This document shows positions 332-41,210 of a stretch of 64,000 nucleotides of DNA, in pieces; position 1 is the stretch's first letter; every line of letters begins with the position of its first letter. The position numbers and the translations under genes are program-made. Origin of the DNA: Bacteroidota bacterium (lineage in GTDB: Bacteria; Bacteroidota; Bacteroidia; Bacteroidales; VadinHA17). The notes below the pieces were generated by a model, which worked only from the letters and a program-made list of their open reading frames with translations, made no database searches and had not been told where the DNA came from. The stretch lies in assembly GCA_018262715.1 (NCBI GenBank), contig JADFDS010000006.1, positions 7,648-71,647 on the forward strand, given 5' to 3'.

Positions 332-337
332 CCTGCC

Positions 338-949: not shown

Positions 950-960
950 TTATTAGCATC

Positions 961-1371
961 ATGAAGACACTGAAAAAATACAGATATGTACTGGCTGCGG
1001 TTGTGGTGATTGCAGTGATGGTTTTGATCCGCGCTTTTAATCCCGGCTCCTTCAGGTATGATGCCGCAAAGTGGGCGGAGCCGTCGGTCACAGGCAGGAA
1101 TATAGTCACTCCTGAAAACCTTCCGGAAATCGGTGACAACATTCTTTTTGTTATGCTTGACACTGAATGCCAGGCACCTGACATACCCGGTGCGGACAAA
1201 CTTTCAGTTGATCCCGCTGACCTGCTTTCAGGTGAGATCATTCGTAAGATCAGAAAGAGCAAGGGCCCTGTAGTTCTTTGCTCAGAAGACGTTTCAATAT
1301 CTTCACGTGTCTGGATGGCGCTAAGTGAAATGGGAATCAGGAAGCTCCACATATTAAAAAATCCGGTCTGA
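961..1371 (+). CDS. Small membrane-anchored degenerate rhodanese-like protein
   Basis: ATG at 961 (MKTLKKYRY), TM helix, VVLCSED...RVWMALSEMGIRKLHIL resembles the C-terminal half of a rhodanese domain. Confidence 0.6.
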   Translation: MKTLKKYRYVLAAVVVIAVMVLIRAFNPGSFRYDAAKWAEPSVTGRNIVTPENLPEIGDNILFVMLDTECQAPDIPGADKLSVDPADLLSGEIIRKIRKSKGPVVLCSEDVSISSRVWMALSEMGIRKLHILKNPV

Positions 1372-1386
1372 TTACCTGGCCGGATT
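1360..1386. terminator. Hairpin between convergent genes
   Basis: AATCCGGTC-N9-GGCCGGATT inverted repeat at the junction of convergent ORFs. Confidence 0.4.
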
Positions 1387-1409
1387 AGTATTTCTGAAGT
1401 TCGGAGGAA

Positions 1410-2450: not shown

Positions 2451-2469
2451 ATTTGAAGCGGTATGAGCA

Positions 2470-3534
2470 TTACTGGGCAACTGCCACCCGGTCCCTGTCA
2501 AACCTCAGGGTCTCGGTGCGGTTCCCCTTTTCGTCATATTTGTACTGGGTGATTGCAACACCGTTATCAGGATTGTTGATTATGTTCCTGTCCTTGTCCA
2601 TATTCCTGACCTCGGTCACTGAGCCGTGCCTGTCATAGGTGTACTGGGTGACGGGAATCATTTTGCCGGCGACGTATTCATTGTCCTGGTCAAACATAGC
2701 CGTTTCGAGCACGTAGCCGTTTTCGTCATATGTGCTTGCGCGGCGCGACCAGCCCCAGTACAGGTTAGACATCTGTCCGGTCACGTTGTAGACTGAGAAT
2801 TTAAGCAGGTCGCCGTGTTCATTCGATTCGAACTGGAAGTATGATACTCCAATGTCACCGCAGTTTTCTGCGGTACAGTTGTAGAGTTTATCATCCATGT
2901 AGTTGGCCATCTCGGTGATATAGCCCTTGTCGTTGTAAGTGAACCTGAGCTCATAGAACGGGCAGAATGGGTTCATGACGGTTTCCTCTTTGGCAAGATT
3001 GTAACGTTTCTCCTGCAGTTTGCCGTCAGGTAGGATTCTCCAGATGTAGTTATGGATCTTATTTCTGTTCTCAACCGGGTTTCCGTCTTTATCGAGGAAC
3101 CTGAGTGCCGTCCTGGTTCCCTTTTCATCGAGGGTATACTCATATGTAAAGACTCCTCCTGATTCAACGGGCTGGCCGTTTTCGTCAAAGAAGCGCTTGA
3201 TTTGTTTGTCGCCTGTATATTCATAGGTGATTTTCGCGGCTCCGCCGAGGGATCCATAGCCAAGCGGCTCGTCGCCCCTTACGAATTCTACCGATGCAAG
3301 GCGGCCGGCGTCGTCATAAGTGAATTTGTAGTTGTTGATATCCTTTGCCTGTGCCGGAGTCAGCTCATGCGATCCTCTTTCGGTATCCCACGGTGTCTCG
3401 CTGAAAAGGAGGTTTCTGAAATGAACGGTTCCGGTGTTGGCTTCCTTTTTTGCGGGTGCCTGGTTGCATGCTGTCAAAGCCGTAACTGCCAGTGCCACAA
3501 TGCCAATCTTAAACGATGAGTTTCTTGATTTCAT
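2470..3534 (-). CDS. Lipoprotein with YD/RHS-like beta-hairpin repeats
   Basis: Start MKSRNS at 3534; lipobox LTAC; repeated TYDDAGR, YDENGY, YTYDRHG, YKYDEKGN units. Confidence 0.7.
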   Translation of the reverse strand: MKSRNSSFKIGIVALAVTALTACNQAPAKKEANTGTVHFRNLLFSETPWDTERGSHELTPAQAKDINNYKFTYDDAGRLASVEFVRGDEPLGYGSLGGAAKITYEYTGDKQIKRFFDENGQPVESGGVFTYEYTLDEKGTRTALRFLDKDGNPVENRNKIHNYIWRILPDGKLQEKRYNLAKEETVMNPFCPFYELRFTYNDKGYITEMANYMDDKLYNCTAENCGDIGVSYFQFESNEHGDLLKFSVYNVTGQMSNLYWGWSRRASTYDENGYVLETAMFDQDNEYVAGKMIPVTQYTYDRHGSVTEVRNMDKDRNIINNPDNGVAITQYKYDEKGNRTETLRFDRDRVAVAQ

Positions 3535-3799
3535 ACTTTCTTTTTTGTTTGATACCAATAGAACAATGTCAGGGTAAAAAGGTTTCCGCAATTTATGACT
3601 AAAATCGGAGTGGAGCAAGCAGATAAAGATGCCGGAGAGCACCCGGATCAAATTTTGCCTGATTCCTTCGGATTTTCAGACCTGTTGTTCCCCTGCAGCA
3701 ACTTTTCCTTATTTTTGGATGACCGGGGATGTGTTGCAAATCTCCGTTCCTGCCGAGAGGCAGGGAAGAATTTTTAACAGAACAATTACTTTACAGTCA

Positions 3800-4567
3800 A
3801 TGCTATTTTTACCTGAGTCAGCATCACTGCTTCATAATGAGATAATATCCGCAATTCTGCCGGTTGTGCTGACAATTTTATTCTTCACCATGTACTGGCT
3901 GGTGGCAAGTTCCCGGAGGCTGAAGGCAAAATTGTACGGGGCGTATGAGCCACTCAGGGCAAATAGCCTTCATGTGGTGCTGAAAAGGTCGGCTGGATTC
4001 GTGCTGCTTGGAGTGCTGCCCGTGGCTGTGATGGTTTTGCTCAATGACAATTTTACACTGGCCGGTGCCGGGGTCAGGTTCAATCCGGAGACCACCCGTT
4101 TTACCGTTATCAGCATAATCCTTCTTTCCCTGCTGGTCATTCCGATAGCCTTTTTCAGTGCCCGGAAGCCGGATGTTTATTCAATTTACCCTGAAATTCG
4201 GGCAAAGTGCTGGACGATTGGTCTCCTGTCTGCCGAGTCATTTACATGGGCTGTATATCTCCTGGGCTATGAGACGCTTTTCCGTGGTGTTCTGCTCTTC
4301 GGCCTTGTCGGTACCACAGGTCCTGTTACAGCAACTGTAATCAATGTCATATTGTATTCTGCTGCACACCTGCCGAAAGGTAAGACGGAGACGCTGGCAG
4401 CAATTCCGTTTGGAATTGTCCTATGCATACTGACTCTCCGGTCAGGAACCATCTGGATTGCATTCATCGTGCACCTGGTCAATGCAGTGACTGCAACATT
4501 CACTGCGATCAGCTATAATCCCGAGATGAGATTTGCCCCCGGAAAAGCAAGATTATCGGGGTTTTGA
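3800..4567 (+). CDS. CPBP (CAAX/Abi) family intramembrane metalloprotease
   Basis: YETLFRG, YSAAH and H...N motifs in a multi-TM protein; ATG at 3800 preferred over the upstream extension. Confidence 0.85.
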   Translation: MLFLPESASLLHNEIISAILPVVLTILFFTMYWLVASSRRLKAKLYGAYEPLRANSLHVVLKRSAGFVLLGVLPVAVMVLLNDNFTLAGAGVRFNPETTRFTVISIILLSLLVIPIAFFSARKPDVYSIYPEIRAKCWTIGLLSAESFTWAVYLLGYETLFRGVLLFGLVGTTGPVTATVINVILYSAAHLPKGKTETLAAIPFGIVLCILTLRSGTIWIAFIVHLVNAVTATFTAISYNPEMRFAPGKARLSGF

Positions 4568-4729
4568 CGGGAAGGTAAAGGCAGTCACCGAATCCTGAAA
4601 ATCCTGATATTCCGGGATTAAAGAAAAGTATTCCTGGGGGCATGATTTTTTTGACGAAAAAAGGTGCATTTTTTCATTGAAATTTCTCCATTTTTCGAAC
4701 ATTTATTTTAGTTTCGTAACAAAGCTTTT

Positions 4730-5725
4730 TTGTTGAGGGTTCTTATAGTATATGATATTGATCATACGTGGGATGCGGCCGAGATCAGCGAGACGCGAAG
4801 ATCGAACCGCATTCTCTTTGACGCACTCAGGAAAGAGGGTTTTGAGACCTATCTCGAAGAACTGCGTGACCCTCATCTCGACAGGATACTGGAAAAGCAT
4901 GATCCCCGGCACACAATTGTCTTCAATCTCTGCGAAGCCCTTCCGGGTTCCTCGCATCCCGAAAGGAGAGTGACGGAGATATTTGAGAACCGGGGGTTCA
5001 CCTATACCGGGAACACCCCGGAAGTCATCGACCTGAGTTATGACAAGCAGAAGACAAAGGAGCTTCTCACGACGCTGGGGATTAGGGTTCCTGACGGAGC
5101 GGTTCTGAGCGCTGAAGAGGCACATACCTGGACTCTCTTTCCGGCCATAGTGAAACCCTCGCGTGAGCACTGCAGCCTGACTATTTCAGAGAAATCCGTT
5201 GTTTTTGACACAGCCTCGCTGAAGGAACAGATAAGGCTTGTAAACAGTGAACTGAATCAGCCTGCCCTGGTGGAGGATTTTATTGACGGCCGCGAATTCC
5301 ATGTCTCTGTCTGGAATAATGGTCCGCCTGAGATACTGCCTGTGGCTGAGATGGACTTTTCGGCCTTCAGCGAAGCGAAGGAGAGGCTATGTACGTATGA
5401 TTCAAAATTTCTTCCCGGCTCATGCCACTATGAAAAGATAGAGACGGTAATGCCTGCGCCTCTCGATGACTGGCTGTATAAAAAGCTGGAAAAAAAGACC
5501 ATTGATACCTGGAACGGATTCGGGTGCACGGATTATGCACGGTTTGACTTCCGGCTGCGTAATGACAAGTTTTACCTTCTCGACATCAATCCCAACAATG
5601 ATATAAGCTTTGACACAAGCTTTGCGATGGCAGCGGGGATGATGAATTACTCCTATGGTCAGATGGTAAAAAGAATAGTGATGATGGCAGCCGGGCGGCA
5701 CCCTGTTTTTAGTGACGGATTCTGA
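4730..5725 (+). CDS. D-Ala-D-Ala ligase-like ATP-grasp protein
   Basis: VFNLCE, YTGN, YDKQKTK, FPAIVKP, LVEDFIDGREF, DYARFDFR, LDINPN motifs; TTG start. Confidence 0.85.
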   Translation: MLRVLIVYDIDHTWDAAEISETRRSNRILFDALRKEGFETYLEELRDPHLDRILEKHDPRHTIVFNLCEALPGSSHPERRVTEIFENRGFTYTGNTPEVIDLSYDKQKTKELLTTLGIRVPDGAVLSAEEAHTWTLFPAIVKPSREHCSLTISEKSVVFDTASLKEQIRLVNSELNQPALVEDFIDGREFHVSVWNNGPPEILPVAEMDFSAFSEAKERLCTYDSKFLPGSCHYEKIETVMPAPLDDWLYKKLEKKTIDTWNGFGCTDYARFDFRLRNDKFYLLDINPNNDISFDTSFAMAAGMMNYSYGQMVKRIVMMAAGRHPVFSDGF

Positions 5726-5776
5726 ACCGGCAGGTACAGCTGCCAGGACCGGTTTGCAAAACAGTTGCCCGGTTTC

Positions 5777-6292
5777 CTATCTGGCCAGGCAGTTCACTAT
5801 CTCAGCGATGTAAATTTTGTGAAGTCCGCCTTTGGTGCTGTAATGGGTTTTCAGGGGTTCGTTGTCAAGGAATGCCTCCCTTGTCAGCTGGCTGGCGTAC
5901 AACTTACGGCACTCCAGAACAATTCTTGCTTCGGCAAATGCCGGCAGGCCTGATTTGGTAAAGAATGGCGTCAATCCTGTTTCTGCCACCTTGTCACAAT
6001 CCCTTCCGCTTTTTGTGCCGCAAAGGTTAAGGGCATCCCGGTATCTGTCGTCAAAGAAAGTCAGGGTGAAACCCTCGTGACTCTCCATGAATTCATAGGT
6101 ATACCTTTCCGGCCTTACGAAAACGAAAACCACGTTTTTGTTCCACAGGTAACCCATCCCTCCCCAGTTGGCAGTCATGGTGTTGAATTTGTTCCTGTTG
6201 CCGGCTGTCACCAGCATCCAGTCAGATGCGATGAGCCTGATCAGGTTGTCAGTAAGGTCTGACGGTTTCACTTCCTTCAGCTTCTCTGTCAT
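5777..6292 (-). CDS. Flavin reductase family protein
   Basis: WMLVTAG...FNTMTANWGG...VRPERYT...CGTKSGRD.DK. Confidence 0.9.
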   Translation of the reverse strand: MTEKLKEVKPSDLTDNLIRLIASDWMLVTAGNRNKFNTMTANWGGMGYLWNKNVVFVFVRPERYTYEFMESHEGFTLTFFDDRYRDALNLCGTKSGRDCDKVAETGLTPFFTKSGLPAFAEARIVLECRKLYASQLTREAFLDNEPLKTHYSTKGGLHKIYIAEIVNCLAR

Positions 6293-6437
6293 TAAACGAA
6301 AAATTTCCGGCTAATATAACAATTGTTGATAACCGGTTCATTACTTTCCTCTCATTTAAATGAACGTTACGCCCCTTTGATAAAAAAATTGTTTAGATTT
6401 AGAGCATCAATTAACCTTAATTAAAAATAATTTAGAA

Positions 6438-7880
6438 ATGAAAGTCTCAGTTATGTTTCCAGCCCGATTAGTGGGGATGCTGTGCATAGCAGCAATCCTG
6501 ACCCTGGCTTCGGGATGCCAGAAGGAAACCACGGAACCGGCAGACCTGAAGGGTGACGTTCCGGTTATGCTAAAGAGTGGCCAGGCAAATGAATTCATTG
6601 TAATATCGAAGAGTGAAATCCTTCCTGCCGGCCTTGACAGAAAGCTGTCAGCCTACGGGGAAATTGTGAGCATGACTCCTGAAATCGGGGTAATGGTTGT
6701 CAGGCCGGCTGCTTCGGATTCAAGGGATAAGATTTCAAAACTTCCGGAGGTAAGGGCTGTTGTTCCTGATTACAATGCCAGGTGGATTGAGCCTGCAATG
6801 AATTTATCAGAAGCCACGGCAGAAAGTATCGGCGATAACGAACGATTTTTCAGCTATCAGTGGAATATGAGAGCCATCAGTGCACCCCAGGCATGGGATG
6901 CAGGCTACACAGGAGAAGGAGTAAGAGTATTCATCCTTGATAACGGTATTGATGCTGATAATCCCGATATCCGGCCAAACCTGAATACTCAACTGAGCTA
7001 CTCCTTCGTTCCCGATGAGCCCTGGTATGCCAGTGAAGGTTCATTTTTCAACCACGGTACACATGTGGCCGGGATAGTTGCCGGGGCAGACAACCAGTGG
7101 GGTATTATCGGGGTTGCACCGCATGCTGAGCTAGTGGCTGTCAAAGTGCTCCGCGAATCAACAGGTTCAGGTAATTTCAGCTGGATCTTCAACGGGATTG
7201 TATATTCCGCGCTCAATGGCGCCGATGTAATCAACATGAGCCTTGGTGCATGGATTGACAGGGCCGGATTCTTCCAGGATGAAGAAGGCAACTGGCATCA
7301 TATGCCTGCAGCCGACTATCAGAACCTGATCATCGCCCAGCAGCGTGCAATTGACTATGCATGGAGGAGTGGCGCAGTAGTTATAGCCTCCGCAGGGAAT
7401 GAGGGTATGAATGCAGATGGCAACCGTTCTCTGATAAAAGTTCCCGGTGAACTTAACAACGTCCTTGCGGTATCAGCAACGGCACCTGAGTGCTGGTGGG
7501 GTCAGCAGAATCCTTTCCTGGATTATCCGGCAAGCTATACCGATTACGGACGCTCACTCATAGATATCGCAGCTCCGGGAGGCGATTTTGACTGCGACAC
7601 ATATGACATGATTCTAAGCTCAGCTGCCGGCGGACCGGCCTCATATACATTCTATTTCGGCGCTGGCACCAGCCAGGCTGCTCCCCATGTGGCAGGAGTG
7701 GCTGCCCTGGTGATCGGGAAGTACGACGGAAATATCACCCCGCTTGAAGTAACTAGGATTCTGACCCTGACTGCTGACAAGATTGAAACAAACGGCCAAT
7801 CCCTCTTTTACGGAAAAGGAAGGGTGAATGCCTGGAGGGCAGTTACGGAGACCATCCCGGGAAGAGGTCGCTTCAACTGA
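6438..7880 (+). CDS. S8 (subtilisin-like) serine peptidase, lipoprotein
   Basis: Lipobox LASGC; catalytic motifs ILDNGID, HGTHVAG, GTSQAAPHVAG; oxyanion SAGN. Confidence 0.92.
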   Translation: MKVSVMFPARLVGMLCIAAILTLASGCQKETTEPADLKGDVPVMLKSGQANEFIVISKSEILPAGLDRKLSAYGEIVSMTPEIGVMVVRPAASDSRDKISKLPEVRAVVPDYNARWIEPAMNLSEATAESIGDNERFFSYQWNMRAISAPQAWDAGYTGEGVRVFILDNGIDADNPDIRPNLNTQLSYSFVPDEPWYASEGSFFNHGTHVAGIVAGADNQWGIIGVAPHAELVAVKVLRESTGSGNFSWIFNGIVYSALNGADVINMSLGAWIDRAGFFQDEEGNWHHMPAADYQNLIIAQQRAIDYAWRSGAVVIASAGNEGMNADGNRSLIKVPGELNNVLAVSATAPECWWGQQNPFLDYPASYTDYGRSLIDIAAPGGDFDCDTYDMILSSAAGGPASYTFYFGAGTSQAAPHVAGVAALVIGKYDGNITPLEVTRILTLTADKIETNGQSLFYGKGRVNAWRAVTETIPGRGRFN

Positions 7881-8271
7881 TTGAAGCTGTCACCTCGAAC
7901 TGCGGCGAGTTGTTGATGGTCTTTTTGACCAGACACAACTCTGCCGCATTGATTACGGCTGCACGGTACTTTTCGGGAAAATCCGCGGGAAGCTCGATAT
8001 TCAGCCTGAACCGGGAGGGTACCCTCTTGTCAGGGTCAAACTCAACCGACTGGATTATTCTGATTCCTTCGGCTGCAATTCCCCTCTGGTCACAGAATGA
8101 TTTTACGTAGATTCCCGCACAGGTCCCGATTGATGCAAGGAACAGCTCAAACGGCTCGGGGGCAGTTCCGCCGCCGCCGTTCCTTACAGATTGGTCGGTT
8201 TGAATCGTTTTGCCGTTTATGTGGGCGGTGACCACCTTACCGCCGTCGAGAGTAATTTCAATGTTTGCCAT
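7873..8271 (-). CDS. OsmC family protein
   Basis: GGGG.APEPFELFLASIGTC and second Cys in ELCLVKK. Confidence 0.9.
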   Translation of the reverse strand: MANIEITLDGGKVVTAHINGKTIQTDQSVRNGGGGTAPEPFELFLASIGTCAGIYVKSFCDQRGIAAEGIRIIQSVEFDPDKRVPSRFRLNIELPADFPEKYRAAVINAAELCLVKKTINNSPQFEVTASIS

Positions 8272-8416
8272 ATGATTATAATATTTTTGCCGCTTGATCT
8301 GCTGCTTTTCTCAGCTCCTCAACAGATGAAGCCTTATTTTGTTTGAATATTGCTGAATCAGGTGGAGGAAAGATATGATTTACCGCAGAAATATCCTCCC
8401 CTGTTCCCGGATCATT

Positions 8417-34410: not shown

Positions 34411-35448
34411 ATGGAATTTACTGCTGCAATGATAGCCCAAATCCTGAACGGTACAGTTGAGGGCGATCCGGAAACGAAACTCAACACAGTGGCCAGGATA
34501 GAAGAGGGCGGGGCGGGTGCCCTTTCGTTCCTTGCAAACCCGAAGTACGAACCTTACCTGTACACAACAACCTCTTCGGCAGTGCTGGTGAGAAATGATT
34601 TCGCTCCGGCGAAGGAGGTTAAAGCCACCCTTATCCGGGTGGATGATCCATACCAGGCGCTTGCCAGGCTGCTAGCTTTCTATGAACAGGCCAGGCCGGC
34701 AAAGAAAGGAATACATGCCTCGGCAGTAATCGATGAAAAGGCATCGGTGGGGGCGGACGTTTTCATCGGAGCCTGTGCCGTCATCTCCGAAAACGTTGTT
34801 ATAGGTGACGGATGCTCACTTCATCCCCAGGTATTTATCGGGGAAAATGTCAAAATCGGCAGGAACTGCATGCTTCATCCCGGAGTAAAGGTTTATCGTG
34901 ATTGCGTGATCGGGAATGATTGTATAATTCATGCAGGGGCAGTGATTGGCGCTGACGGATTTGGCTTTGCGCCGGTCACCGATGCCAATTTCATGAAGAT
35001 TCCTCAGATAGGCAATGTTATCCTGGAAGATAACGTGGAGATCGGGGCCAACACCTGCGTAGACCGCGCCACCATGGGTTCGACAATTATCAGGAAGGGG
35101 GTAAAGCTCGACAACCTGATACAGGTTGGTCACAACTGCGAGATAGGAGAGAACACCGTCATAGCCGCCCAGTCGGGGCTGGCAGGATCGACCATCGTCG
35201 GAAGGAACTGCATGTTCGCCGGGCAGGTGGGTCTGGCAGGCCATCTGCGGATAGCCGATGGTGTCAAGATCGGGGCACAGTCGGGCATAATGAGCACAAT
35301 CAGTGAAGAGAACGCCACTTACCTCGGATACCCCGCAACTGACAGCAAACAATTTCTGAAAACCACTGTTTATCTTAGGAAACTGCCTGATCTGAGCAAC
35401 AGGGTTGATGCTCTCGCAAAAGCAGTTGAATCTTTAAAAAACAGCTAG
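34411..35448 (+). CDS. lpxD: UDP-3-O-(3-hydroxyacyl)glucosamine N-acyltransferase
   Basis: FLANPKY, hexapeptide repeats, IGADGFGF, KLDNLIQVGHN. Confidence 0.97.
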   Translation: MEFTAAMIAQILNGTVEGDPETKLNTVARIEEGGAGALSFLANPKYEPYLYTTTSSAVLVRNDFAPAKEVKATLIRVDDPYQALARLLAFYEQARPAKKGIHASAVIDEKASVGADVFIGACAVISENVVIGDGCSLHPQVFIGENVKIGRNCMLHPGVKVYRDCVIGNDCIIHAGAVIGADGFGFAPVTDANFMKIPQIGNVILEDNVEIGANTCVDRATMGSTIIRKGVKLDNLIQVGHNCEIGENTVIAAQSGLAGSTIVGRNCMFAGQVGLAGHLRIADGVKIGAQSGIMSTISEENATYLGYPATDSKQFLKTTVYLRKLPDLSNRVDALAKAVESLKNS

Positions 35449-35559
35449 TTCCGAAAGGCGGTCTAAAGGAAATGATTTGATCATCACGCAGATGTAGGGT
35501 TTTTGATTATGCTGTTCGGAAAATTTTCTTTTTCTTTGCCCAATTAAAACTGACCTGAT

Positions 35560-36954
35560 ATGATTGAAAAACAGAGGACGCTGGCTAATGAGGTGAGTCT
35601 CAACGGTAAGGGCCTTCATTCCGGAATTGACGTAATTGTGACCTTCAAGCCTGCTCCTCCGAACCACGGCTATAAGTTTTGTCGTACTGACCTTCCCGGC
35701 GCGCCGTTAATAGATGCGGTTGCTGACCATGTTACCGAGACTTCGAGGGGAACCACGCTGGTACAGGGTGACGCCTCTGTTGCTACAATTGAGCACGTTC
35801 TTGCAGCATTTGCAGGGATGCGCGTTGACAATGCACTGATTGAGATTAACGGACCCGAGGCTCCGATCATGGGGGGCAGTTCCCGAATGTTCGTGGAAGC
35901 CATAACGAAGGCCGGAATCATTGAACAGGAAGAGGAGCGCAACTATTATGTAATAAAGGAGAAGATAGCCTTCTCTGACGAGGAACACGGGGTTGACCTG
36001 ATAATCTACCCTGATGATCATTTCAGCGCACATGTTCTGATAGACTATAACTCGAAGATACTCGGCAACCAGTATGCCATCCTTGATCAGATCAATGACT
36101 TTGAAAAGGATATAGCAGGCAGCCGTACCTTTGTCTTCTTCCATGAACTTGAACCGCTCTTCCGGATGGGACTGATAAAAGGGGGTGATCTTGAGAATGC
36201 CGTGGTGATCCTAGAGCGTGAAGTGGAACAGGAAGAGATTGACCGCATTGCCAAGATGTTCAATAAGCCAGGTATCACTGAACACCATGCCGGCGTACTC
36301 AACAACACCAAGCTCAGGTATCCGAATGAGCCGGCGAGACATAAGCTGCTTGACCTGATAGGCGACCTTGCACTGGTGGGGCAGCCCATCAAGGGCAAGG
36401 TTGTGGCAACCCGCCCGGGGCATTATTCCAATACCAGGCTTGCCAGGCTGATCAGGCAGGAGATAAAGAGACAGACAACAAAAAAGGAGATTCCCCTTCT
36501 TGATACCACCAAGCCGGCGGTGATGGACATACAGCAGATCAAGAAGCTGCTTCCCCACCGGTTCCCTTTCCTCATGGTTGACAGGATTCTTGAGCTCACC
36601 ACCAGCCATGTGATAGGAATGAAGAACACCACTTACAATGAAGCCTTCTTCCAGGGTCATTTTGAGCAGGAGCATGTTTTCCCGGGTGTTCTCCTGGTGG
36701 AGACGATGGCGCAGGTTGGAGGAATACTTGTGCTTCACAACGTGGACGAGCCCGAAAGGTACTCAACCTATTTCCTGAAGATAGACAGGATGAAGTTCAA
36801 GCATAAGGTCATCCCGGGTGATACCATTATCATAAGGGCGGATATGACCGAACCCATCCGGAGGAACATTGTGATCATGTATTGCCAGGCTTTTGTTGGC
36901 GAAAAGCTGGTTGCGGAAGGGGAGATGACGGCACAGGTTATAAAGAACAAGTAA
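35560..36954 (+). CDS. lpxC/fabZ: Bifunctional LpxC-FabZ
   Basis: TIEHVLAA and HKLLDLIGDL (LpxC); LPHRFPFL and FFQGHF (FabZ). Confidence 0.96.
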   Translation: MIEKQRTLANEVSLNGKGLHSGIDVIVTFKPAPPNHGYKFCRTDLPGAPLIDAVADHVTETSRGTTLVQGDASVATIEHVLAAFAGMRVDNALIEINGPEAPIMGGSSRMFVEAITKAGIIEQEEERNYYVIKEKIAFSDEEHGVDLIIYPDDHFSAHVLIDYNSKILGNQYAILDQINDFEKDIAGSRTFVFFHELEPLFRMGLIKGGDLENAVVILEREVEQEEIDRIAKMFNKPGITEHHAGVLNNTKLRYPNEPARHKLLDLIGDLALVGQPIKGKVVATRPGHYSNTRLARLIRQEIKRQTTKKEIPLLDTTKPAVMDIQQIKKLLPHRFPFLMVDRILELTTSHVIGMKNTTYNEAFFQGHFEQEHVFPGVLLVETMAQVGGILVLHNVDEPERYSTYFLKIDRMKFKHKVIPGDTIIIRADMTEPIRRNIVIMYCQAFVGEKLVAEGEMTAQVIKNK

Positions 36955-36960
36955 CAAGAT

Positions 36961-37734
36961 ATGATTTCTTCACTGGCACATATTGACCCGAAGGCTCAGC
37001 TTGGCAAGGGGGTCACTGTTGAGCCGTTTGCCACCATCTATGGTGATGTTGTGATCGGCGACGGTACCTGGATCGGTTCCGGGGCGGTTATCTATGACGG
37101 TGCGAGGATAGGCAGCAACTGCCGTATCTTCAACGGCGCCTCCATCTCGGCCATTCCGCAGGATCTGAAATTCAGCGGGGAGGAGACCACCCTGGAGATT
37201 GGTGACAACACCACTGTCAGGGAGTTTGCCACTCTCAACAGGGGCACGCGTGCAAGAGGCAGGACCATCATCGGAAAGAACTGCCTGCTGATGGCTTATG
37301 TTCATGTGGCGCATGACTGCAGCCTGGGAGACAATGTGATCATGGTTGCCTCATCCGGGATAGCCGGTGAGGTGGAACTGGGGAACTGGGTGACGCTGGG
37401 CGGGGGAACCATAGTACACCAGTTTGTCCGTATCGGTAATCATGCTTTCCTGGGAGGAGGCTCAAAGGTGCGGATGGATGTACCTCCCTTCATCAAGGCT
37501 GACCGTGAGCCGCTGGCCTACATGGGAATAAACAGTGTTGGACTGGAACGGAGGGGTTTCACAAAGGAGAAGATGCATGAGCTTCATGAGATCTACAGGG
37601 CTTATTTCAATATGGGGATGAACGGCACCAAAGCGCTGGAGTACATTGGTGCCAACTTCCCGTCCACGCCGGAGCGCGATTACATTCTGGATTTTATTAG
37701 CAAATCTGCCAGGGGGGTTATCAGGGGGCGTTAA
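36961..37734 (+). CDS. lpxA: Acyl-ACP--UDP-GlcNAc O-acyltransferase
   Basis: Hexapeptide repeats, PQDLKF.GE, REF.T.NRGT, HVAHDC, HQF. Confidence 0.97.
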   Translation: MISSLAHIDPKAQLGKGVTVEPFATIYGDVVIGDGTWIGSGAVIYDGARIGSNCRIFNGASISAIPQDLKFSGEETTLEIGDNTTVREFATLNRGTRARGRTIIGKNCLLMAYVHVAHDCSLGDNVIMVASSGIAGEVELGNWVTLGGGTIVHQFVRIGNHAFLGGGSKVRMDVPPFIKADREPLAYMGINSVGLERRGFTKEKMHELHEIYRAYFNMGMNGTKALEYIGANFPSTPERDYILDFISKSARGVIRGR

Positions 37735-37745
37735 GCCCCTTTTTT
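37724..37745 (+). terminator. Terminator of the lpx operon
   Basis: GGGGC-GTTAA-GCCCC plus T-run overlapping the lpxA stop. Confidence 0.65.
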
Positions 37746-37825
37746 ATTGCCTCACTGCAAGTAAGGGAATCATGCATGACTGATCACCCCTGACCTGTGA
37801 TTCTGTATCTGTGATGAGAGGTGTA

Positions 37826-37869
37826 TAAAACACGAATGGGAACCATACTGTACGTAATAGTTCCCATTC
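37826..37869 (-). terminator. Intrinsic terminator of the candidate ncRNA
   Basis: Minus strand GAAUGGGAACUA...UGGUUCCCAUUC followed by GUGUUUUAU. Confidence 0.7.
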
Positions 37870-38421
37870 CGGCGAGTGACAGCCATGACCGTCATTGCCG
37901 CCATGCTACTGTTATTGCAGCCGGTTCATCTCTCTTACTCCTCCCTTTCCCGGTCTGTCGGGGTCTGCCGTTAAGCTGACTGCTGACCTGTTCCGGTATC
38001 TCTTCTGTTATCCGTAGTGGCCTTGCGGTTTTCCGGGCGCATACTGAGATGCGGAGTCATGAACCCTTGAAGCACGACACCCCCCGAAAGGGCAGCTGCT
38101 GTCATGCCCGGATCATCTCCATCCTATCCTCGCCGGTTCGGTTGGCATGATGACCCTCTCTCTGAACGGACACATCTGCTGCTTTATTAGCTTTCAGCCT
38201 TGCATCTGTGTTGCTTTCCTCTCGCGGCTGTTACACCGTCTGATGATTGCTCCGTCAGGCCGCCAGGATGGGAAGGCTTCTCAGCCTGCACCCGTGACGG
38301 ACGCTTCTGAACCGTAGTTCGTCAGCGTGAGACTCTGAAGTCTGATGTTAATTCAGAGTGATAATTAAACCAATCCAAAGAACCTTCATGCTTCAAAGCG
38401 ACTCTTTATCGCTCACATGGT
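37826..38421 (-). ncRNA. Candidate large (~595 nt) structured non-coding RNA, class unassigned
   Basis: No ORF of 60 aa or more in any frame; own promoter and terminator; long-range helices 38386-38396/38067-38077 and 38059-38065/37923-37929; C(UACG)G, GAGA and GCAA tetraloop hairpins; mismatches resolve as G-U only on the minus strand. Confidence 0.72.
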
Positions 38422-38425
38422 AGAA

Positions 38426-38457
38426 CAAATATAACCCGATATCCCGTAACGGTCAAG
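38426..38457 (-). promoter_or_regulatory. Bacteroidota housekeeping-type promoter
   Basis: Minus strand CTTG-N20-TATATTTG versus consensus TTTG-N19-21-TAnnTTTG. Confidence 0.7.
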
Positions 38458-38548
38458 TTTTTCAGGGCAATAATACGACGAAGAAAGTAACATAAAATAA
38501 ACAGGTTTATCAACAATGATAAATGGCTGTATCATAAGATTTTAATTT

Positions 38549-38587
38549 AAAAAGAACGAGGTTATCAACAGCTGTTGATAACCTCGT
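38549..38587 (-). terminator. Perfect 32-bp palindrome plus U-tract; terminator of the DUF4139 gene
   Basis: ACGAGGTTATCAACAG|CTGTTGATAACCTCGT (38556-38587), followed on the minus strand by TCTTTTT. Confidence 0.7.
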
Positions 38588-38612
38588 CTGTCAGTCGTTT
38601 GACAACTATCTG

Positions 38613-40220
38613 TTATTCAAGTATAACTTTCTTGTTCTTCGGGTACTTCACGCTGTAGGTAAAGACAATTTCTTTGGTTTCGCGGGGTGCAACCGGGAGG
38701 TCCCAGGTAACCTCGCCCGTGGCGCTGTGCTGTTTGCCGCCGCTGAGCTCAACGGCTTCAACGGTGATGTCGCTGTTTTGGGGCAGAGGCAGCTGGTCAC
38801 GCAGTCTCACTGTCACAGCCTTGCTCTTGTTGTTTCTGACGGATATCAGGAACGATAGGGTCTCAACCCTGTTGGCACCGATCATTTTCTGCGAGGTGAA
38901 ATCGGTGCGGCGGTCTCGCTTCACTGTAATGCTGTTGTCAGCACCGAGTGACACCGGCAGGGTATCAGTCAGCTCCGCGGTGTTGATGTATCCCTTGCCG
39001 GTGAAGGTGTTGCTGAAGTAAATGTTTGACTCACCCGGCAGGAGGTTGTATTTATCCCATTCAGTGATGTACCCCATCAGGTATGCCGAAGAGGCAATCT
39101 TGGGCGTTGCGGCATAGCTGTAGGTGGCAGGCACGGTGAGTCTCTGCAGCTCTACTGTCTCCTGCTTGCCGCCTGATGCAATGGTCTTGGGCACATTTAT
39201 ATCGAAACTGAAGCTGATGTTTGACTCTGTTACTGTAACAGGCATCGGGGCGCTTGCCTCCAGATCCATCATCACGGCATCCTCTGCCTTGGCCTGGCGG
39301 GCCGGTCTGCCCTTTGTCCCGTAACCGACGACAACCATTTCATTGAGGGCGTATTCCTGGTAGAAGTCAATGAACCATGGGTCAAGGACGGGCAGATACC
39401 CTGCTGTCATCGGTGCGGCGTTGGAGAGGCTTACTTTCACGTCCTTCCACTCCACTCCGCTGTTCTGCCAGATATTTGCCTTATAGATGATTATGGCCGG
39501 ATCGGTGATGTCATCAACCCTGATATCATATGCCGGCTGCCATCCTGCATTCATAACCACATAAGATATATTAAGCCTGCCTGTTACGGGCTTGCTGCCG
39601 GAAAGGGTCATGACAATCTCGCCGGTTGGCATCTTCGAGCGGTCGATGGTGCCGGCAAGCTGCTGGTCAAGCTTTTCCTTTTCCTCCCTGTATTCCTTCA
39701 AAATCCTGTTTTTTTTGAGAATGGCAGTTTTTACACTCTCCATGCCGGTGCCATAGATATCCATCAGGGCCTTCAGCTGGTCAGGCGTTATGGCCGACTT
39801 CTGGCTTACAACGTCATAGTTGGCCTTGAGGAATCGCTCCTTCTCCAGCAGCACCTCCGTGGCGGTTTCCTCATCCTCGATCCTGATCTGCAGGGCCTTT
39901 ATCTTGTCGCGCAGAGTGCTGATCTCATCTGACTCTGCAGGATTCTCAAGGTAATTGTTGCGGTGAGTCACACCCATTATCATGAAATCGCCCTCACCTC
40001 TCACCTGGATGCTGTTGGGATCTATATATGGCGAAAGACCTCCGGCAACGTACTCCCATGTACCGGGCTGAAGCGTGACGGCTGCATCACCGGAGAGCTG
40101 GGCACCGCGACTGAAAACCGTAACATGACTTACAGGTACCTGTATATACTTTTCCTGCCCCTCAAGAGTGGAAGAAGAAAGCACTATTGCAAAAAACGCA
40201 ACGAAGAGATATTTTTTCAT
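38613..40220 (-). CDS. DUF4140/DUF4139 (MuiA-like) exported protein
   Basis: Signal peptide MKKYLFVAFF; VTVF..GAQ, coiled coil, SYVV.NAGW.P.YDIR, QNSG.EW..V...LS. Confidence 0.85.
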   Translation of the reverse strand: MKKYLFVAFFAIVLSSSTLEGQEKYIQVPVSHVTVFSRGAQLSGDAAVTLQPGTWEYVAGGLSPYIDPNSIQVRGEGDFMIMGVTHRNNYLENPAESDEISTLRDKIKALQIRIEDEETATEVLLEKERFLKANYDVVSQKSAITPDQLKALMDIYGTGMESVKTAILKKNRILKEYREEKEKLDQQLAGTIDRSKMPTGEIVMTLSGSKPVTGRLNISYVVMNAGWQPAYDIRVDDITDPAIIIYKANIWQNSGVEWKDVKVSLSNAAPMTAGYLPVLDPWFIDFYQEYALNEMVVVGYGTKGRPARQAKAEDAVMMDLEASAPMPVTVTESNISFSFDINVPKTIASGGKQETVELQRLTVPATYSYAATPKIASSAYLMGYITEWDKYNLLPGESNIYFSNTFTGKGYINTAELTDTLPVSLGADNSITVKRDRRTDFTSQKMIGANRVETLSFLISVRNNKSKAVTVRLRDQLPLPQNSDITVEAVELSGGKQHSATGEVTWDLPVAPRETKEIVFTYSVKYPKNKKVILE

Positions 40221-40288
40221 GCTGTCGAATTTTTTATAAAGGTATTGAAAAAGAGATTTATGATCAAGGACGACAAAAACCCTGCCGT

Positions 40289-40323
40289 AAAAAAAACTGC
40301 CGGACGATTGCAATCCGGCAGTT
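40289..40323 (-). terminator. Terminator after the ECF sigma gene
   Basis: AACTGCCGGA...TCCGGCAGTT stem with a minus-strand U-run. Confidence 0.75.
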
Positions 40324-40344
40324 CATCTTCACCATCTGTTTAAC

Positions 40345-40851
40345 CTAACCATTGTAATCTTTAAGAACACTCATGAGTTTCTGTCGTGCGAAGAAAATCC
40401 GGCTTTTGACCGTGCCGAGCTTCAGGTTGAGATTCTCAGCTATCTCCTCGTATTTGAAACCGTCAACATGCATGCGGAAGGGGAGACGGTAATCCTCATG
40501 AAGCTCTTCAATAGCCTTCTCAATCTCATTACCTGCATATGACGACTCGGGAGAAATGCTTCCCTTGTCGGAGGGCAGATTGAGGTAGTAAAGCTCCTGC
40601 GTGCCGTCCATCATCGTGTTTTCCCTCATCTTGCGGCGGTAATTGTTGATGAAGGTGTTTTTCATTATTGTGAAGACCCAGGCTTTGAGGTTCGTGGCAT
40701 CCACGAATTTATCCTGGTTCTGTATTGCCTTGAGAAAAGTATCCTGAACGAGATCAAGGGCATTATCACGGTCGAGGGTCAGACTGAGGGCGTACTTCTG
40801 AAGATTGCCCTTCAGATCTATTATGCTTGATGTGAATTCCTGTGCAGTCAT
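40345..40851 (-). CDS. ECF (sigma-70 family) RNA polymerase sigma factor
   Basis: DLVQDTFLKA, NLKAWVFTIMKNTFIN, YEEIAE.L...LGTVKSRIF.AR; start MTAQEF at 40851. Confidence 0.93.
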   Translation of the reverse strand: MTAQEFTSSIIDLKGNLQKYALSLTLDRDNALDLVQDTFLKAIQNQDKFVDATNLKAWVFTIMKNTFINNYRRKMRENTMMDGTQELYYLNLPSDKGSISPESSYAGNEIEKAIEELHEDYRLPFRMHVDGFKYEEIAENLNLKLGTVKSRIFFARQKLMSVLKDYNG

Positions 40852-41210
40852 CTCTCTGATTTTTTTGTTTGTTGACACAAAGTTAAACACTGAAAATCGG
40901 ATATCCAAATCTGAATATCTTAAATTATAGTTAAAGCAGCTTGTGGTCACCTGTTTTCTAAACTCCAATTCAAACAAAATCAGGAATATAAATGTGTGAT
41001 GTCTAAATTAAGATAATAAGGTATTTTTTTAATTTCAACCTGTCCGGGACAGGGCGAGAGGAGTGGGGGCAAGTGGTTAATATGGCATAAAAAGCACATT
41101 AACAGCACGATACGTATTGAAATGAATATGATGACTTTGTTCAATCATCCTCTGCGCGTGAGCCCCTTCCGCTCTTTCCCGGTTTTGATTATCTTTACAA
41201 AAAAGTGGCT

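Follow-up and report, generated by a model that had tools for sequence, protein, structure and literature searches.

A large structured RNA gene between lpxA and a DUF4139 gene represents an RNA family of Bacteroidales and Cytophagales with a conserved terminal module

Introduction

Large structured RNAs are few in bacteria, and each of those described, among them RNase P RNA, tmRNA, 6S RNA, OLE, ROOL, GOLLD and raiA, has opened a field. The ROOL, GOLLD and raiA families belong to Bacillota, Actinomycetota or phages, while the gene neighborhood of OLE includes the oap partner genes. Sponge RNAs of the CsrB/RsmZ type are preceded by a GacA/UvrY palindrome, and in large ribozymes the most conserved nucleotides lie in junction-like loops. 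OLE is described as working within a ribonucleoprotein in Gram-positive carriers, with a precise biochemical function that is still termed mysterious (PMC9723947), and ROOL, GOLLD and OLE are described as forming homo-oligomers (PMC12286853). The raiA motif reportedly equals rRNA and tRNA in abundance in one species and is present in more than 2700 species (PMC12968392). In Bacteroides and Segatella, Bacteroidales-1 RNA is given as the homolog of 6S (10.1101/2024.04.05.588293; PMC7366714).

Here we examine an ORF-free region in a 64,000-nt stretch of Bacteroidota DNA (hereafter the window), which an initial annotation had put forward as a possibly undescribed RNA gene of the size of OLE, ROOL and GOLLD. 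Our results support a minus-strand gene for a structured RNA of several domains, and the RNA is the large (~600-nt) form of a new class found in Bacteroidales and Cytophagales.

Results

The largest gap in the window holds a self-contained transcription unit

The two genes that flank the region, lpxA and a DUF4140/DUF4139 gene, were both confirmed by Pfam (Table 1). The ORF-free interval between them covers positions 37735–38612 and, at 878 bp (the initial annotation gave 880 bp), is the largest in the window, where the next two measure 337 bp, in an interval at the edge of the window, and 307 bp. It had been claimed that the gap contains no ORF of 60 aa or more, and indeed the longest ORF wholly within it is 56 aa. 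We also looked for an ORF conserved in the genus among homologs of the RNA and found none that was kept, the best candidate, of 34 aa, being uninterrupted in 25 of 43, and the variability of alignment columns by codon phase within the genus (0.099, 0.094 and 0.108) gave no period of three.

On the minus strand, a promoter, an RNA of ~596 nt and a hairpin with a U-tract together form the self-contained unit that had been proposed, with ends almost exactly where the initial annotation placed them. The proposed promoter was found as TTG (38456–38454), a 20-nt spacer, TATATTTG (38433–38426) and then 4 nt to A38421, and a sigma-70-type scan also marked TTGACC-17-TATATT at this site. The proposed intrinsic terminator, a 10-bp stem GAAUGGGAAC/GUUCCCAUUC (37869–37834) followed by GUGUUUUA, was present in the fold and invariant in 30/30 sequences; a simple terminator scan missed it, in our view because the scan admits loops of up to 8 and this one has 16 nt. 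The edges of conservation were sharp, rising at ~38434 (so that the −7 box is included) and falling at ~37825. As for the suggestion that terminators of both neighbors insulate the unit, the scan did list one for lpxA, but the hairpin after the DUF4139 gene (38588–38555), which the scan also listed and the initial annotation had read as that gene's terminator, turned out to be a conserved palindrome belonging to the RNA gene unit.

Table 1. Positions of the RNA gene, its structural elements and its surroundings in the window.
Feature	Position	Strand	Remarks
lpxA	36961–37734	+	Pfam
DUF4140/DUF4139 gene	38613–40313	−	Pfam
20-bp perfect palindrome TTATCAACAGCTGTTGATAA	38562–38581		Center 150 nt before RNA start; core of 38588–38555 hairpin
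Degenerate second palindrome copy, then CCTGTTTAT	38497–38523		By eye; weak; near the single-copy position of other genera
−33 element TTG, Bacteroidota-type promoter	38454–38456	−	TTG 18–22 nt before −7 box in 75/82 relatives
−7 element TATATTTG (TAnnTTTG)	38426–38433	−	4–5 nt before first A of RNA in 80/82 relatives
RNA, ~596 nt	37826–38421	−	5′ end predicted from promoter, 3′ end from terminator
P1 5′ strand CCAUGU	38415–38420	−	Pairs with 37901–37906
J5′, internal-loop 5′ strand GAGCGAUAAAG	38404–38414	−	Family consensus GAGMGAUAAARG; invariant or nearly so
P2 5′ strand AGUC	38400–38403	−	Pairs with GGCU 37919–37922
UGAAGC, 5′ strand of helix closing ~320-nt 5′ domain	38390–38395	−	Pairs with 38068–38073
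GCUUCA, 3′ strand of helix closing ~320-nt 5′ domain	38068–38073	−	Pairs with 38390–38395
GGUUCAU, 5′ strand of second-domain closing helix	38059–38065	−	Pairs with 37923–37929
AUGAACC, 3′ strand of second-domain closing helix	37923–37929	−	Pairs with 38059–38065
P2 3′ strand GGCU	37919–37922	−	Pairs with AGUC 38400–38403
J3′, internal-loop 3′ strand GCAAUAACAGUA	37907–37918	−	Family consensus AAYAACNGUA
P1 3′ strand GCAUGG	37901–37906	−	Pairs with 38415–38420
H1, 3′ hairpin after P1 (CGGC/GCCG + AUGACGGU/GCUGUCAC)	37870–37900	−	Covariation, 83 members
Terminator hairpin GAAUGGGAAC...GUUCCCAUUC	37834–37869	−	Invariant 30/30 in genus; family-wide 96.1% paired, 9/11 pairs double-changed
U-rich tail GUGUUUUA	37826–37833	−	Sequence; conserved in genus

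The RNA probably acts in trans and is abundant in metatranscriptomes

The RNA gene is single-copy in its genome, is convergent with lpxA and overlaps neither neighbor; because of this convergence, no same-strand gene lies downstream of it in the window. Flanking genes vary by lineage: the 115 flanking ORFs that we compared fell into 50 clusters, of which UbiD (21), enolase (16), the beta-lactamase family (8) and SRAP (7) recurred, and none of these clusters was found to travel with the RNA. Since the gene converges on lpxA and its flanking genes differ between lineages, the RNA probably acts in trans. We rejected a riboswitch or other cis-acting leader, given that the RNA converges on lpxA, that its terminator is conserved in 83 sequences, and that the downstream genes vary.

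Pieces of the RNA were plentiful in RNA libraries. Four metatranscriptome runs from four studies had 216–8282 contig pieces on the stretch, and single contigs on the RNA reached depths of 5,685, 8,075 and 25,000, compared with 2–143 (982 in one run) for flank contigs. Summed over the body bins (37904–38415), contig depth was 7e3–2.3e6 in the four libraries, against 134–174,216 in the edge bin (37840–37903) and 0–150 (982 in one run) in the flanks; being contig data, these depths cannot show strand, ends or level, and the sums include relatives down to 90% identity. The high-depth libraries came from wastewater and digesters.

These data also bear on whether the element might be a long leader, 3′ UTR or antisense regulator of lpxA or the DUF4139 gene and not an independent gene. 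A 487-nt contig with a depth of 982 bridges the 3′ end of lpxA and the 3′ domain of the RNA, the first base of one RNA-derived contig in public data lies 14 nt ahead of where the RNA is predicted to start, and in many relatives a UbiD gene (21 flanking ORFs) lies downstream on the same strand. On the other hand, the RNA has its own promoter, recognizable in 80/82 relatives, and its own terminator; its neighbors change with lineage and are not overlapped by it, no same-strand gene follows it in the window, and the depth of the flanks is far exceeded by that on the RNA itself. We therefore consider a leader, UTR or antisense role highly improbable.

RNA pieces were also found at the 5′ ends of three distinct RNA-derived ssRNA-phage records, before the maturation gene and as a different fragment in each, which fits chimeric assembly. 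Apart from these records, the idea of a small or decayed protein-coding gene, or of what is left of a mobile element or phage, can draw on ORFs that some homologs contain by chance, of up to 156 aa, but it is set against the absence of a kept ORF and of a period of three, the frequent compensatory changes described below, the single-copy state of the gene, and the lack of any match to the RNA in 72,556 plasmid records or to its 5′ pattern in a viral contig collection. Taken with the chimeric character of the phage records, this leaves such an origin scarcely credible.

Compensatory changes within the genus outline a multi-domain fold

The minus strand folded with an MFE z-score of −4.38, a value that 0/100 shuffles equaled, compared with −1.94 (2/100) for the plus strand. 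The modeled pairs contained 470 G-U cells vs 61 A-C cells, in agreement with the earlier observation that mismatches in the stems are G-U on the minus strand and A-C on the plus strand. Across 30 sequences, 96.4% of the cells at 177 modeled pairs were standard, compared with 35.5–42.9% in slid controls, and 50 pairs had changed on both sides compared with 9–16 in the controls; 0/500 shuffles equaled this, although relatedness inflates the shuffle control. With 44 genus sequences, 55 of 185 pairs showed double changes, compared with 12–19 in controls. Because prediction of the structures and counting of the pairs used the same alignments, the models hold an advantage over the slid controls. The helices of the first ~100 nt, P1 and the terminator do not vary within the genus, and support for them comes only from other lineages.

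The individual helices that had been proposed fared unevenly. For the 11-bp helix said to close a 5′ domain of ~320 nt, the outer 6 bp stood (38395–38390 with 38073–38068, 98.9% paired), with one pair changing from AU to GC in 7/30 sequences and another occurring as CG, UG and UA, whereas its two middle pairs were standard in only 13/30. The GGUUCAU/AUGAACC helix closing the second domain was 99.5% paired and had two double-changed pairs (UA to CG in 5/30 and GC to AU in 1/30), and ACUCC/GGAGU, GAAC/GUUC and AGGCU/AGCCU were each backed by double-sided changes. Four further hairpins did not hold up: UCAUGCC/GGCAUGA was 89.5% paired, lacked double changes and competes with covarying helices, CGCAU/AUGCG was 75.2% paired, GA-GCAA-UC was absent from every consensus, and ACUCUGAA/UUCAGAGU, at 97% paired, never covaried.

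The RNA belongs to a family whose conserved core is its terminal module

The RNA was present in 31/35 other genomes of the genus and in 59/62 of a family sample. Beyond the genus, BLAST matched only its two ends. Relatives of 250–625 nt nevertheless have these same ends (6-bp closing helix, invariant internal loop, 3′ hairpin and terminator), and the 3′ module lay 249–624 nt downstream of the 5′ motif in 63/81. At least 119 such stretches occurred in named Bacteroidales, Rikenellaceae, Prolixibacteraceae and Cyclobacteriaceae records; carriers include isolates of Cytophagales, and the named isolates, by record titles, include Cecembia lonarensis LW9, Cognataquiflexum aquatile Z0201 and Shivajiella indica KCTC 19812.

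For the family as a whole, we collected 83 distinct sequences using patterns for J5′ and J3′, so that these two motifs were the condition of entry and the pairing of P1 was not. P1, which joins the ends of the RNA through 6 bp, had standard pairs throughout in 83/83, with the alternatives CG/UA/UG, AU/GC, GC/AU/UA/GU and GC/GU/AU at its varying positions. Of the motifs that governed entry, AAUAAC.GUA of J3′ was invariant in the 83 sequences, and position 11 of J5′ covaried with the N of AACNGUA, A occurring with U in 10/10 and C occurring with A (62), C (8), G (2) or U (1). H1 showed double-sided changes at 4/5 pairs of its outer helix and 5/5 of its inner helix. Taken together, the 3′ domain of the 83 sequences was 91.7% standard, compared with 27–46% in controls, and 18/21 pairs were double-changed.

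Inside the internal loop, the long-range helix P2 competes in the genus with a local 5′ hairpin, GAGCGAU/GUCGCUU (38414–38396). We prefer P2, because the local hairpin never covaries and cannot form in relatives with GAGAG. At one P2 pair (35:536 in the genus RNAalifold consensus) we counted AU 15, GU 11 and GC 3, and the equivalent helix in a ~500-nt class was 98% paired with 3/4 pairs double-changed. In that class as a whole (40 sequences, mean identity 64%), 90.0% of cells at 125 pairs were standard, compared with 27–45% in controls, and 88 pairs had double changes, compared with 48–62.

The interior of the RNA, by contrast with its ends, is its least conserved part. It ranges by lineage from ~100 to ~450 nt, reaching the lower value in Cyclobacteriaceae, and is made up of covarying lineage-specific helices, many of them with GNRA or UUCG-type loops. 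The conserved core of the family is thus the terminal module and not the large inner domains.

We built a covariance model (R2) from a hand-drawn structure of the 3′ domain that we checked by pair counts on the 83 sequences; it replaced an earlier model (R1) based on the RNAalifold consensus of that domain, in which the terminator was absent and pairs numbered only 8. The window RNA, which has P1, J5′, J3′, H1 and the terminator, scored 91.2 bits with R2. The model found the RNA in 32/151 sampled Bacteroidales genomes, a sample of roughly one genome per family, and in 4/151 of a phylum-wide sample. As 119/151 of the sampled Bacteroidales gave no match, the RNA is not essential to the order.

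A near-unique palindrome precedes the RNA gene

The perfect palindrome upstream of the promoter is the only site within two substitutions in the 3.15-Mb genome. A related palindrome stood upstream of the RNA at fixed distances in 63/75 loci, its center falling in the 85-nt bin in 49 of them and at 150 nt in 12, the size class of the window, and the sites in five other genomes of the family numbered 1, 1, 1, 2 and 3, with the RNA locus always among them. The degenerate second copy that we noticed by eye was not recovered in a search allowing five substitutions. An upstream palindrome so nearly unique suggests a dedicated transcription factor controlling one RNA. The palindrome could instead act as an insulating terminator, and the fact that its half-sites change together does not discriminate between the two, since this would be seen under either reading.

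In one genome of the family (G203), a LacI-family gene and a gene for a TonB-dependent receptor have a second perfect palindrome between them. The genome of the window encodes a LacI-family ortholog 59% identical to the G203 protein, with no palindrome beside its gene. We rejected this protein as the general regulator, because its orthologs (E up to 1e-50) are confined to the family, occurring in 2/151 genomes of the order sample, while the palindrome is kept across many families; within its own family, it may act on the palindrome.

The RNA matches no family in Rfam 15

We found 0 matches at the gathering score in the window among the 4227 families of Rfam 15, and at E up to 10 there were eight chance-level matches, none of them to OLE. 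Scanning the loci of 15 relatives and a short form with Rfam likewise gave 0 matches. As the initial annotation had maintained, the RNA is neither RNase P RNA nor tmRNA, the genome's own copies of which sit elsewhere (contig C39, 237 bits, and contig C10, 121.8 bits, respectively; SRP RNA also lies on C10, at 50.3 bits). The literature searched did not describe the RNA, a statement to be read with the proviso that supplementary tables of screens could list it and that subscription journals are outside the coverage; no description appears in the available portions of 10.64898/2026.10.21.760802, 10.64898/2026.09.22.753630, 10.64898/2026.09.15.751765, PMC11109978, PMC8632094 and PMC8040213. The suggestion that the RNA might be undescribed thus agrees with a family that has no match in Rfam 15 or in the literature searched.

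The likeness to OLE, ROOL and GOLLD holds for size and ornateness, but covariance models contradict membership in any of these families. OLE RNA (RF01071) shares with the new RNA a length of ~600 nt, an ornate fold, conserved nucleotides between covarying helices and a stand-alone gene, and the carriers of both are mostly anaerobes and alkaliphiles or halophiles. However, its model did not match the window RNA, and its carriers are given as Gram-positive (PMC9723947), while those of the new RNA are Bacteroidota by record titles. Unlike OLE, the new RNA ranges from 250 to 625 nt, has the terminal module as its core, and adjoins no conserved partner gene: in place of an OLE-type neighborhood we found lpxA and the DUF4139 gene in the window, and enolase, UbiD, beta-lactamase family and SRAP genes in relatives. 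ROOL, GOLLD and raiA motif RNAs are also large structured bacterial RNAs to which no function has been assigned, but the ROOL (RF03087), GOLLD (RF01998), raiA (RF03072) and HEARO models had no match in the window or in the loci of 16 relatives, and the new RNA was not found in plasmids or, by its 5′ pattern, in viral contigs.

With CsrB/RsmZ RNAs, the new gene shares a preceding palindrome found almost nowhere else in the genome, but the RNA is a single compact fold and not a string of similar hairpins. We rejected a CsrB-like sponge, as the genome has no CsrA (PF02599) and the window RNA contains 14 GGA where 15.1 are expected; enrichment of GGA over dinucleotide shuffles was absent in 6/6 family members tested.

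Comparison with 6S RNA

Like the new RNA, 6S RNA is abundant and trans-acting, is encoded by a stand-alone gene, and has paired 5′ and 3′ ends with a large conserved internal loop between helices. This raises the possibility that the new RNA is a 6S-like global regulator that would bind the RNA polymerase holoenzyme and replace Bacteroidales-1 6S RNA in its carriers. Among the near-universal housekeeping RNAs, only 6S went undetected in the genome of the window, where RNase P RNA, tmRNA and SRP RNA were all detected: RF00013 and RF01693 (Bacteroidales-1) had no match in the window or the whole genome, and neither did RF01685 (6S-Flavo), whose control likewise matched nowhere, which voids this last comparison. 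Across the 151 Bacteroidales genomes, we found the new RNA in 32, an above-cut-off Bacteroidales-1 RNA in 24, and both in 0, the only overlaps (G275 and G304) both falling below the cut-off; of 40 genomes that carry the 5′ motif, two have an above-cut-off Bacteroidales-1 match.

Several observations weigh against this possibility. The consensus fold is multi-branched and three times larger than 6S (RF00013, RF01693), whose models do not match it; where 6S is a rod with a central bubble, we found a closing helix of only 6 bp, and the only likeness is the loop of ~11 by 12 nt adjoining P1. No sequence similarity was detected to six Bacteroidales-1 examples, which are ~180-nt rods. The families behind the genome counts are also not independent. 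Moreover, 95/151 genomes have neither RNA, meaning that detection of 6S is poor and that the exclusivity may be a lineage effect, and RF00013 matches 1/151 in the order, so its failure to find 6S says little. We thus judge a 6S-like role to be quite unlikely.

Discussion

We think it probable that the gap between lpxA and the DUF4139 gene encodes, as an independent unit, a noncoding RNA that is highly structured, very abundant and trans-acting and that belongs to a family new to Rfam 15 and to the literature searched. Our best guess for its role is that of a trans-acting, protein-binding housekeeping or regulatory RNA.

In certain other RNAs, a conserved end module binds protein, and it is on this analogy that we base a tentative proposal, to which we give somewhat less than an even chance. 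The invariant terminal module (P1, the loop, P2 and the 3′ hairpins) would be the working part and would bind a protein partner, in which case the RNA would scaffold or regulate a ribonucleoprotein with a housekeeping role, like the 6S, SRP or OLE RNAs. The expandable interior may supply stability or secondary contacts, and a dimeric DNA-binding protein recognizing the palindrome would set synthesis of the RNA.

The RNA might instead work without a dedicated protein, either as a self-assembling ornate particle of the ROOL, GOLLD and OLE type or as a new ribozyme with the invariant loop as its active center. Its size, its many GNRA and UUCG-type loops and its dense covarying helices would suit such a role, as would the placement of its most conserved nucleotides in a junction-like loop, the lack of an adjoining partner gene among the flanking ORFs, and a conserved hairpin loop, CUUAAYUG, whose UUAA core is self-complementary (noted by eye). 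However, any cage would have to be formed by the interior, which is less conserved than the rest of the RNA and only ~100 nt long in Cyclobacteriaceae, the UUAA loop offers A-U pairs only, and no result points to a substrate or cleavage site. We hold a protein-free function to be unlikely. A bolder version of the 6S comparison is doubtful as well: the RNA might have taken on, independently and at a much larger size, the task of 6S in the global control of RNA polymerase, or, more broadly, might be the RNA subunit of an undiscovered housekeeping ribonucleoprotein; in both cases it would have displaced Bacteroidales-1 in about one-fifth of the sampled genomes and would be switched by a dedicated factor reading the palindrome.

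Returning to the reading of the gap as an independent RNA gene, covariation suffices to draw the structure of the RNA, and the compact conserved core points to its working part. Since the carriers include named isolates, deletion, pull-down and cryo-EM are within reach. The abundance of the RNA also creates a practical problem, in that reference ssRNA-phage genomes have acquired pieces of it at their 5′ ends during assembly. With an Rfam model, an intergenic region that recurs as "empty" would receive an annotation in 32/151 sampled Bacteroidales genomes, and the family raises the question of how RNA polymerase is regulated in Bacteroidales without a recognizable 6S RNA.

A structured RNA between lpxA and a DUF4139 gene

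We found that the ORF-free interval at 37735-38612, in which the ~596-nt RNA is encoded on the minus strand (38421-37826), is the largest in the window at 878 bp (the runners-up being 337 and 307 bp) and that its longest ORF is 56 aa, so that the initial annotation was right both about the size of this gap and about its having no ORF of 60 aa or more. The self-contained minus-strand unit described there, with a promoter (TTG-N20-TATATTTG) at one end and a terminator hairpin at the other, was also recovered, and the features are listed in the table below. Folding of the minus strand gave a z-score of -4.38, which none of 100 shuffles equalled, vs -1.94 for the plus strand, equalled by 2 of 100.

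Features of the RNA locus, with positions in the window
Feature	Position	Strand	Basis or remark
lpxD, lpxC/fabZ fusion and lpxA (lipid A cluster)	34411-37734	+	Pfam
ECF sigma factor gene and, immediately 3′ of it, a DUF4140/DUF4139 gene	38613-40977	-	Pfam
Promoter TTG	38456-38454	-	20-nt spacer to next element
Promoter element TATATTTG	38433-38426	-	4 nt ahead of RNA start
RNA start ACCAUGUGAGCGAUAAAG...	from 38421	-	predicted
P2, AGUC with GGCU	38403-38400 with 37922-37919	-	RNAalifold on genus
10-bp terminator hairpin GAAUGGGAAC/GUUCCCAUUC	37869-37834	-	sequence and fold
3′ tail GUGUUUUA	to 37826	-	after terminator hairpin

Conservation and covariation within the genus

The stretch is single-copy in the genome that contains the window (G000). 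Of the 35 other genus genomes, 31 carry it at 66-92% identity, and the remaining four are 68-79% complete; in a family-level sample it was found in 59 of 62 genus genomes. Conservation climbed at ~38434 and dropped at ~37825, with unalignable flanks on either side. No ORF was kept across the homologs, the best-kept frame, of 34 aa, being unbroken in 25 of 43, and column variability showed no period of three (0.099, 0.094 and 0.108 for the three phases). The stretch is conserved as RNA, not as protein.

RNAalifold on 30 genus sequences predicted 158 pairs, 45 of which were changed on both sides. The 11-bp long-range helix proposed in the initial annotation held in its covarying outer part (38390-38395 with 38068-38073), which was forced into a model of 177 pairs and 36 helices, and which closes a domain of ~320 nt in the window. 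In this model, 96.4% of pairs were standard, vs 35.5-42.9% when partners were slid; double changes occurred at 50 pairs (vs 9-16) and in 181 cells (vs 16-30), and none of 500 shuffles attained any of five measures. For 44 distinct genus sequences, a 185-pair structure was 96.4% standard (vs 35-42%), with 55 double-change pairs (vs 12-19), all such counts being made among related sequences on the same alignments that predicted the structures. Modelled pairs included 470 G-U cells vs 61 A-C cells, an excess that agrees with the minus strand and upholds the earlier argument for that strand from G-U pairs. The first ~100 nt, the 6-bp helix joining the RNA ends (P1) and the terminator did not vary within the genus.

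A conserved terminal module and a variable interior

The conserved core of the RNA is a terminal module. All six pairs of P1 were standard in 83 of 83 distinct sequences, with the alternatives CG/UA/UG, AU/GC, GC/AU/UA/GU and GC/GU/AU, where the patterns used for collecting fixed some P1 letters but left pairs 3-5 free to be complementary or not. In the internal loop adjoining P1, the strands GAGMGAUAAARG and AAYAACNGUA are almost invariant, and one position in each covaries with the other: A at position 11 was accompanied by U at the N of AACNGUA in 10 of 10 sequences, while with C at position 11 the N was A in 62, C in 8, G in 2 and U in 1. The 4-bp helix that closes the loop (P2) was 98% paired in the ~500-nt size class, with three of its four pairs changed on both sides. 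Two 3′ hairpins that follow P1 were 91.7% paired in the 83 sequences, vs 27-46% when slid, with 18 of 21 pairs changed on both sides; no shuffle of 500 attained this.

The interior is structured too, and differs from one size class to another. In the ~500-nt class (40 sequences, mean identity 64%), 125 pairs were 90.0% standard (vs 27-45%), and 88 showed double changes (vs 48-62). The equivalent of the long-range helix domain spans ~100 nt in this class, and the whole interior is ~150 nt in Cyclobacteriaceae.

Distribution of the RNA family

Outside the genus but within the family, BLAST aligned only the first ~40 and last ~50 nt, 420-530 nt apart and on one strand. Twenty fetched stretches, one of which (L082) ends at a contig end, share a single plan: a TAnnTTTG promoter, AYCRRGUGAGCGAUAAAAGG, a variable interior, then ...AAUAACAGUAAYCUGRC, a hairpin (often with a CUUCGG loop) and the GAAUGGGAAC terminator. 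Pattern scanning of one genome per species yielded at least 119 stretches. Among the matches listed, which comprise 80 loci, carriers were Bacteroidales and Rikenellaceae MAGs, Prolixibacteraceae (Sunxiuqinia, Draconibacterium, Mariniphaga and Mangrovibacterium), Cyclobacteriaceae including the isolates Cecembia lonarensis LW9, Cognataquiflexum aquatile and Shivajiella indica, and one Chlorobiota-labelled MAG. The 3′ motif with a T-run lay 249-624 nt downstream of 63 of 81 5′ motifs, with sizes clustering at ~285, 400-425, 490-535 and 595-624 nt.

The exact 5′ pattern occurred in 41 of 401 Bacteroidales genomes, and a reversed control pattern three times. With a covariance model (R2) built on the 3′ module, 32 of 151 Bacteroidales genomes, sampled at roughly one per family, were found to carry the RNA, as were 4 of 151 genomes, G000 included, of a phylum-wide sample mostly of other orders; two of the three distant matches retain P1 and both loop strands in an RNA of ~250 nt. 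The RNA was not found in most other sampled genomes. From these counts we therefore describe a patchy family, common in part of Bacteroidales and Cyclobacteriaceae. The R2 search also returned two copies of the 3′ module in G231, G275, G314 and G324, and a Cytophagales MAG contig (L132) has two 5′ motifs ~2 kb apart. At another locus (L066), inspection by eye showed short tandem repeats ~30-150 nt downstream of the RNA, with units such as GGAGCAAGG or GGGGCATGG followed by CAACTTTAT.

Representation in public sequencing data

Twelve studies of sludge, compost and digesters contributed 24 public runs in which the stretch was found; four of these runs are recorded as metatranscriptomes, with 216, 8282, 274 and 7638 contig pieces on the stretch. 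Single short contigs on the RNA reached depths of 5,685, 25,000 and 8,075 in runs X12, X17 and X18, respectively, vs 2-143 for flank contigs. Summed contig depth was 7e3-2.3e6 in every body bin (37904-38415), 134-174,216 in the edge bin 37840-37903, 0-91 in bin 38416-38479 and 11-148 in bin 37776-37839 (982 in X17), these sums taking in relatives down to 90% identity and contig depths giving no strand, ends or level. This is strong evidence, and not a measurement, that the stretch is present as a very abundant RNA whose limits are close to those predicted. One 487-nt X17 contig of depth 982 (37460-37946) spans the 3′ part of lpxA together with the lpxA terminator and the RNA's 3′ domain, a pattern compatible with read-through of one or other convergent gene.

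Three distinct reference records of ssRNA phages (Leviviricetes), which derive from RNA data on activated sludge, start with pieces of the RNA: NC_073766.1 (1-241), NC_074146.1 (2-186) and BK014139.1 (1-80). These pieces, 80-241 nt long and 5′ of the maturation gene, are 94-95% identical to positions 1-241, 121-305 and 426-505 of a 625-nt query (38435-37811), all in RNA-sense orientation. The records are probably chimeric assemblies driven by the abundance of the RNA, and may alternatively reflect real recombination with a host RNA. One piece begins at 38435, 14 nt before the predicted start, so the 5′ end at 38421 may not be exact.

A palindrome upstream of the RNA

A perfect palindrome, TTATCAACAGCTGTTGATAA (38581-38562), forms the core of the hairpin after the DUF4139 stop codon, and a palindrome related to it (consensus TTATTAACAATTGTTAATAA, with 5 substitutions allowed) precedes the RNA at 63 of 75 loci. 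In 49 of these the palindrome's centre fell in the 85-nt bin ahead of the RNA's first A; the 12 loci that share the window's size class have it at 150 nt. Within 2 substitutions, it has a single site in the 3.15 Mb of G000, and 1, 1, 1, 2 and 3 sites in five other genomes of the family, the RNA locus always among them. Given this fixed position and near-uniqueness, the palindrome is to be assigned to the RNA gene, irrespective of what is found upstream. By analogy, a dimeric DNA-binding protein may use it as its operator, the closest parallel being the GacA/UvrY box before rsmZ and csrB; it may also be an insulating terminator kept with the RNA gene. In G203, a second perfect palindrome (L217:1505-1524) lies between genes for a LacI-family regulator and a TonB-dependent receptor. 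The G000 ortholog of this candidate regulator, which is confined to the family, is 59% identical (G000:C4:51565-52593), with no palindrome beside it.

Relation to known RNAs and possible function

The Rfam covariance search suggested at the outset gave nothing at gathering score in the 64-kb window with Rfam 15 (4227 models). At E up to 10, the interval had eight chance-level matches, the best scoring 22.2 bits against a threshold of 55, and the loci of 16 relatives, covering all size classes, had no Rfam match. RNase P RNA, tmRNA and SRP RNA lie at other sites in G000, in keeping with the reported lack of RNase P and tmRNA signatures here. We rate the RNA as a new class, novel as a family against Rfam 15. 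No description of it was found in the main text of openly accessible literature, or in passages of Bacteroides and Segatella transcriptome papers and recent RNA-discovery screens. In these passages, the housekeeping RNAs that Bacteroides and Segatella papers name are limited to tmRNA, RNase P RNA and 6S RNA, which agrees with the absence of this RNA from most sampled families.

Bacteroidales-1 (RF01693) is the 6S homolog of Bacteroides and Segatella (10.1101/2024.04.05.588293, PMC7366714), and the RNA might be a 6S-like regulator taking its place: among 151 Bacteroidales genomes, 32 carried this RNA and 24 an above-cut-off Bacteroidales-1, with an overlap of 0, and no 6S RNA was found in G000 with RF00013, RF01693 or RF01685, although the control for RF01685 matched nowhere either, which voids that one test. 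However, 95 of the 151 genomes, whose families are not independent, had neither RNA; the fold, unlike that of 6S, is not rod-like; and no likeness to Bacteroidales-1 examples was seen. We consider such a replacement quite unlikely.

The 115 flanking ORFs fell into 50 clusters, of which UbiD (downstream, 21), enolase (upstream, 16), beta-lactamase-family (8) and SRAP (7) recurred, and none contained a gene travelling with the RNA. Lacking a companion gene and, in the window, converging on lpxA, the RNA is therefore trans-acting. A CsrB-like sponge was rejected, since the genome has no CsrA and GGA is not enriched.

It seems unlikely that the RNA acts as a putative RNA-only particle or ribozyme. 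RNAs that are subunits or regulators of ribonucleoproteins, such as 6S, SRP, Y and OLE, would be expected to combine an unvarying terminal module with an interior that can expand, very high abundance and an upstream element of their own, as this RNA does. By analogy with these, we tentatively prefer to see the RNA as a possible subunit or regulator of a ribonucleoprotein.
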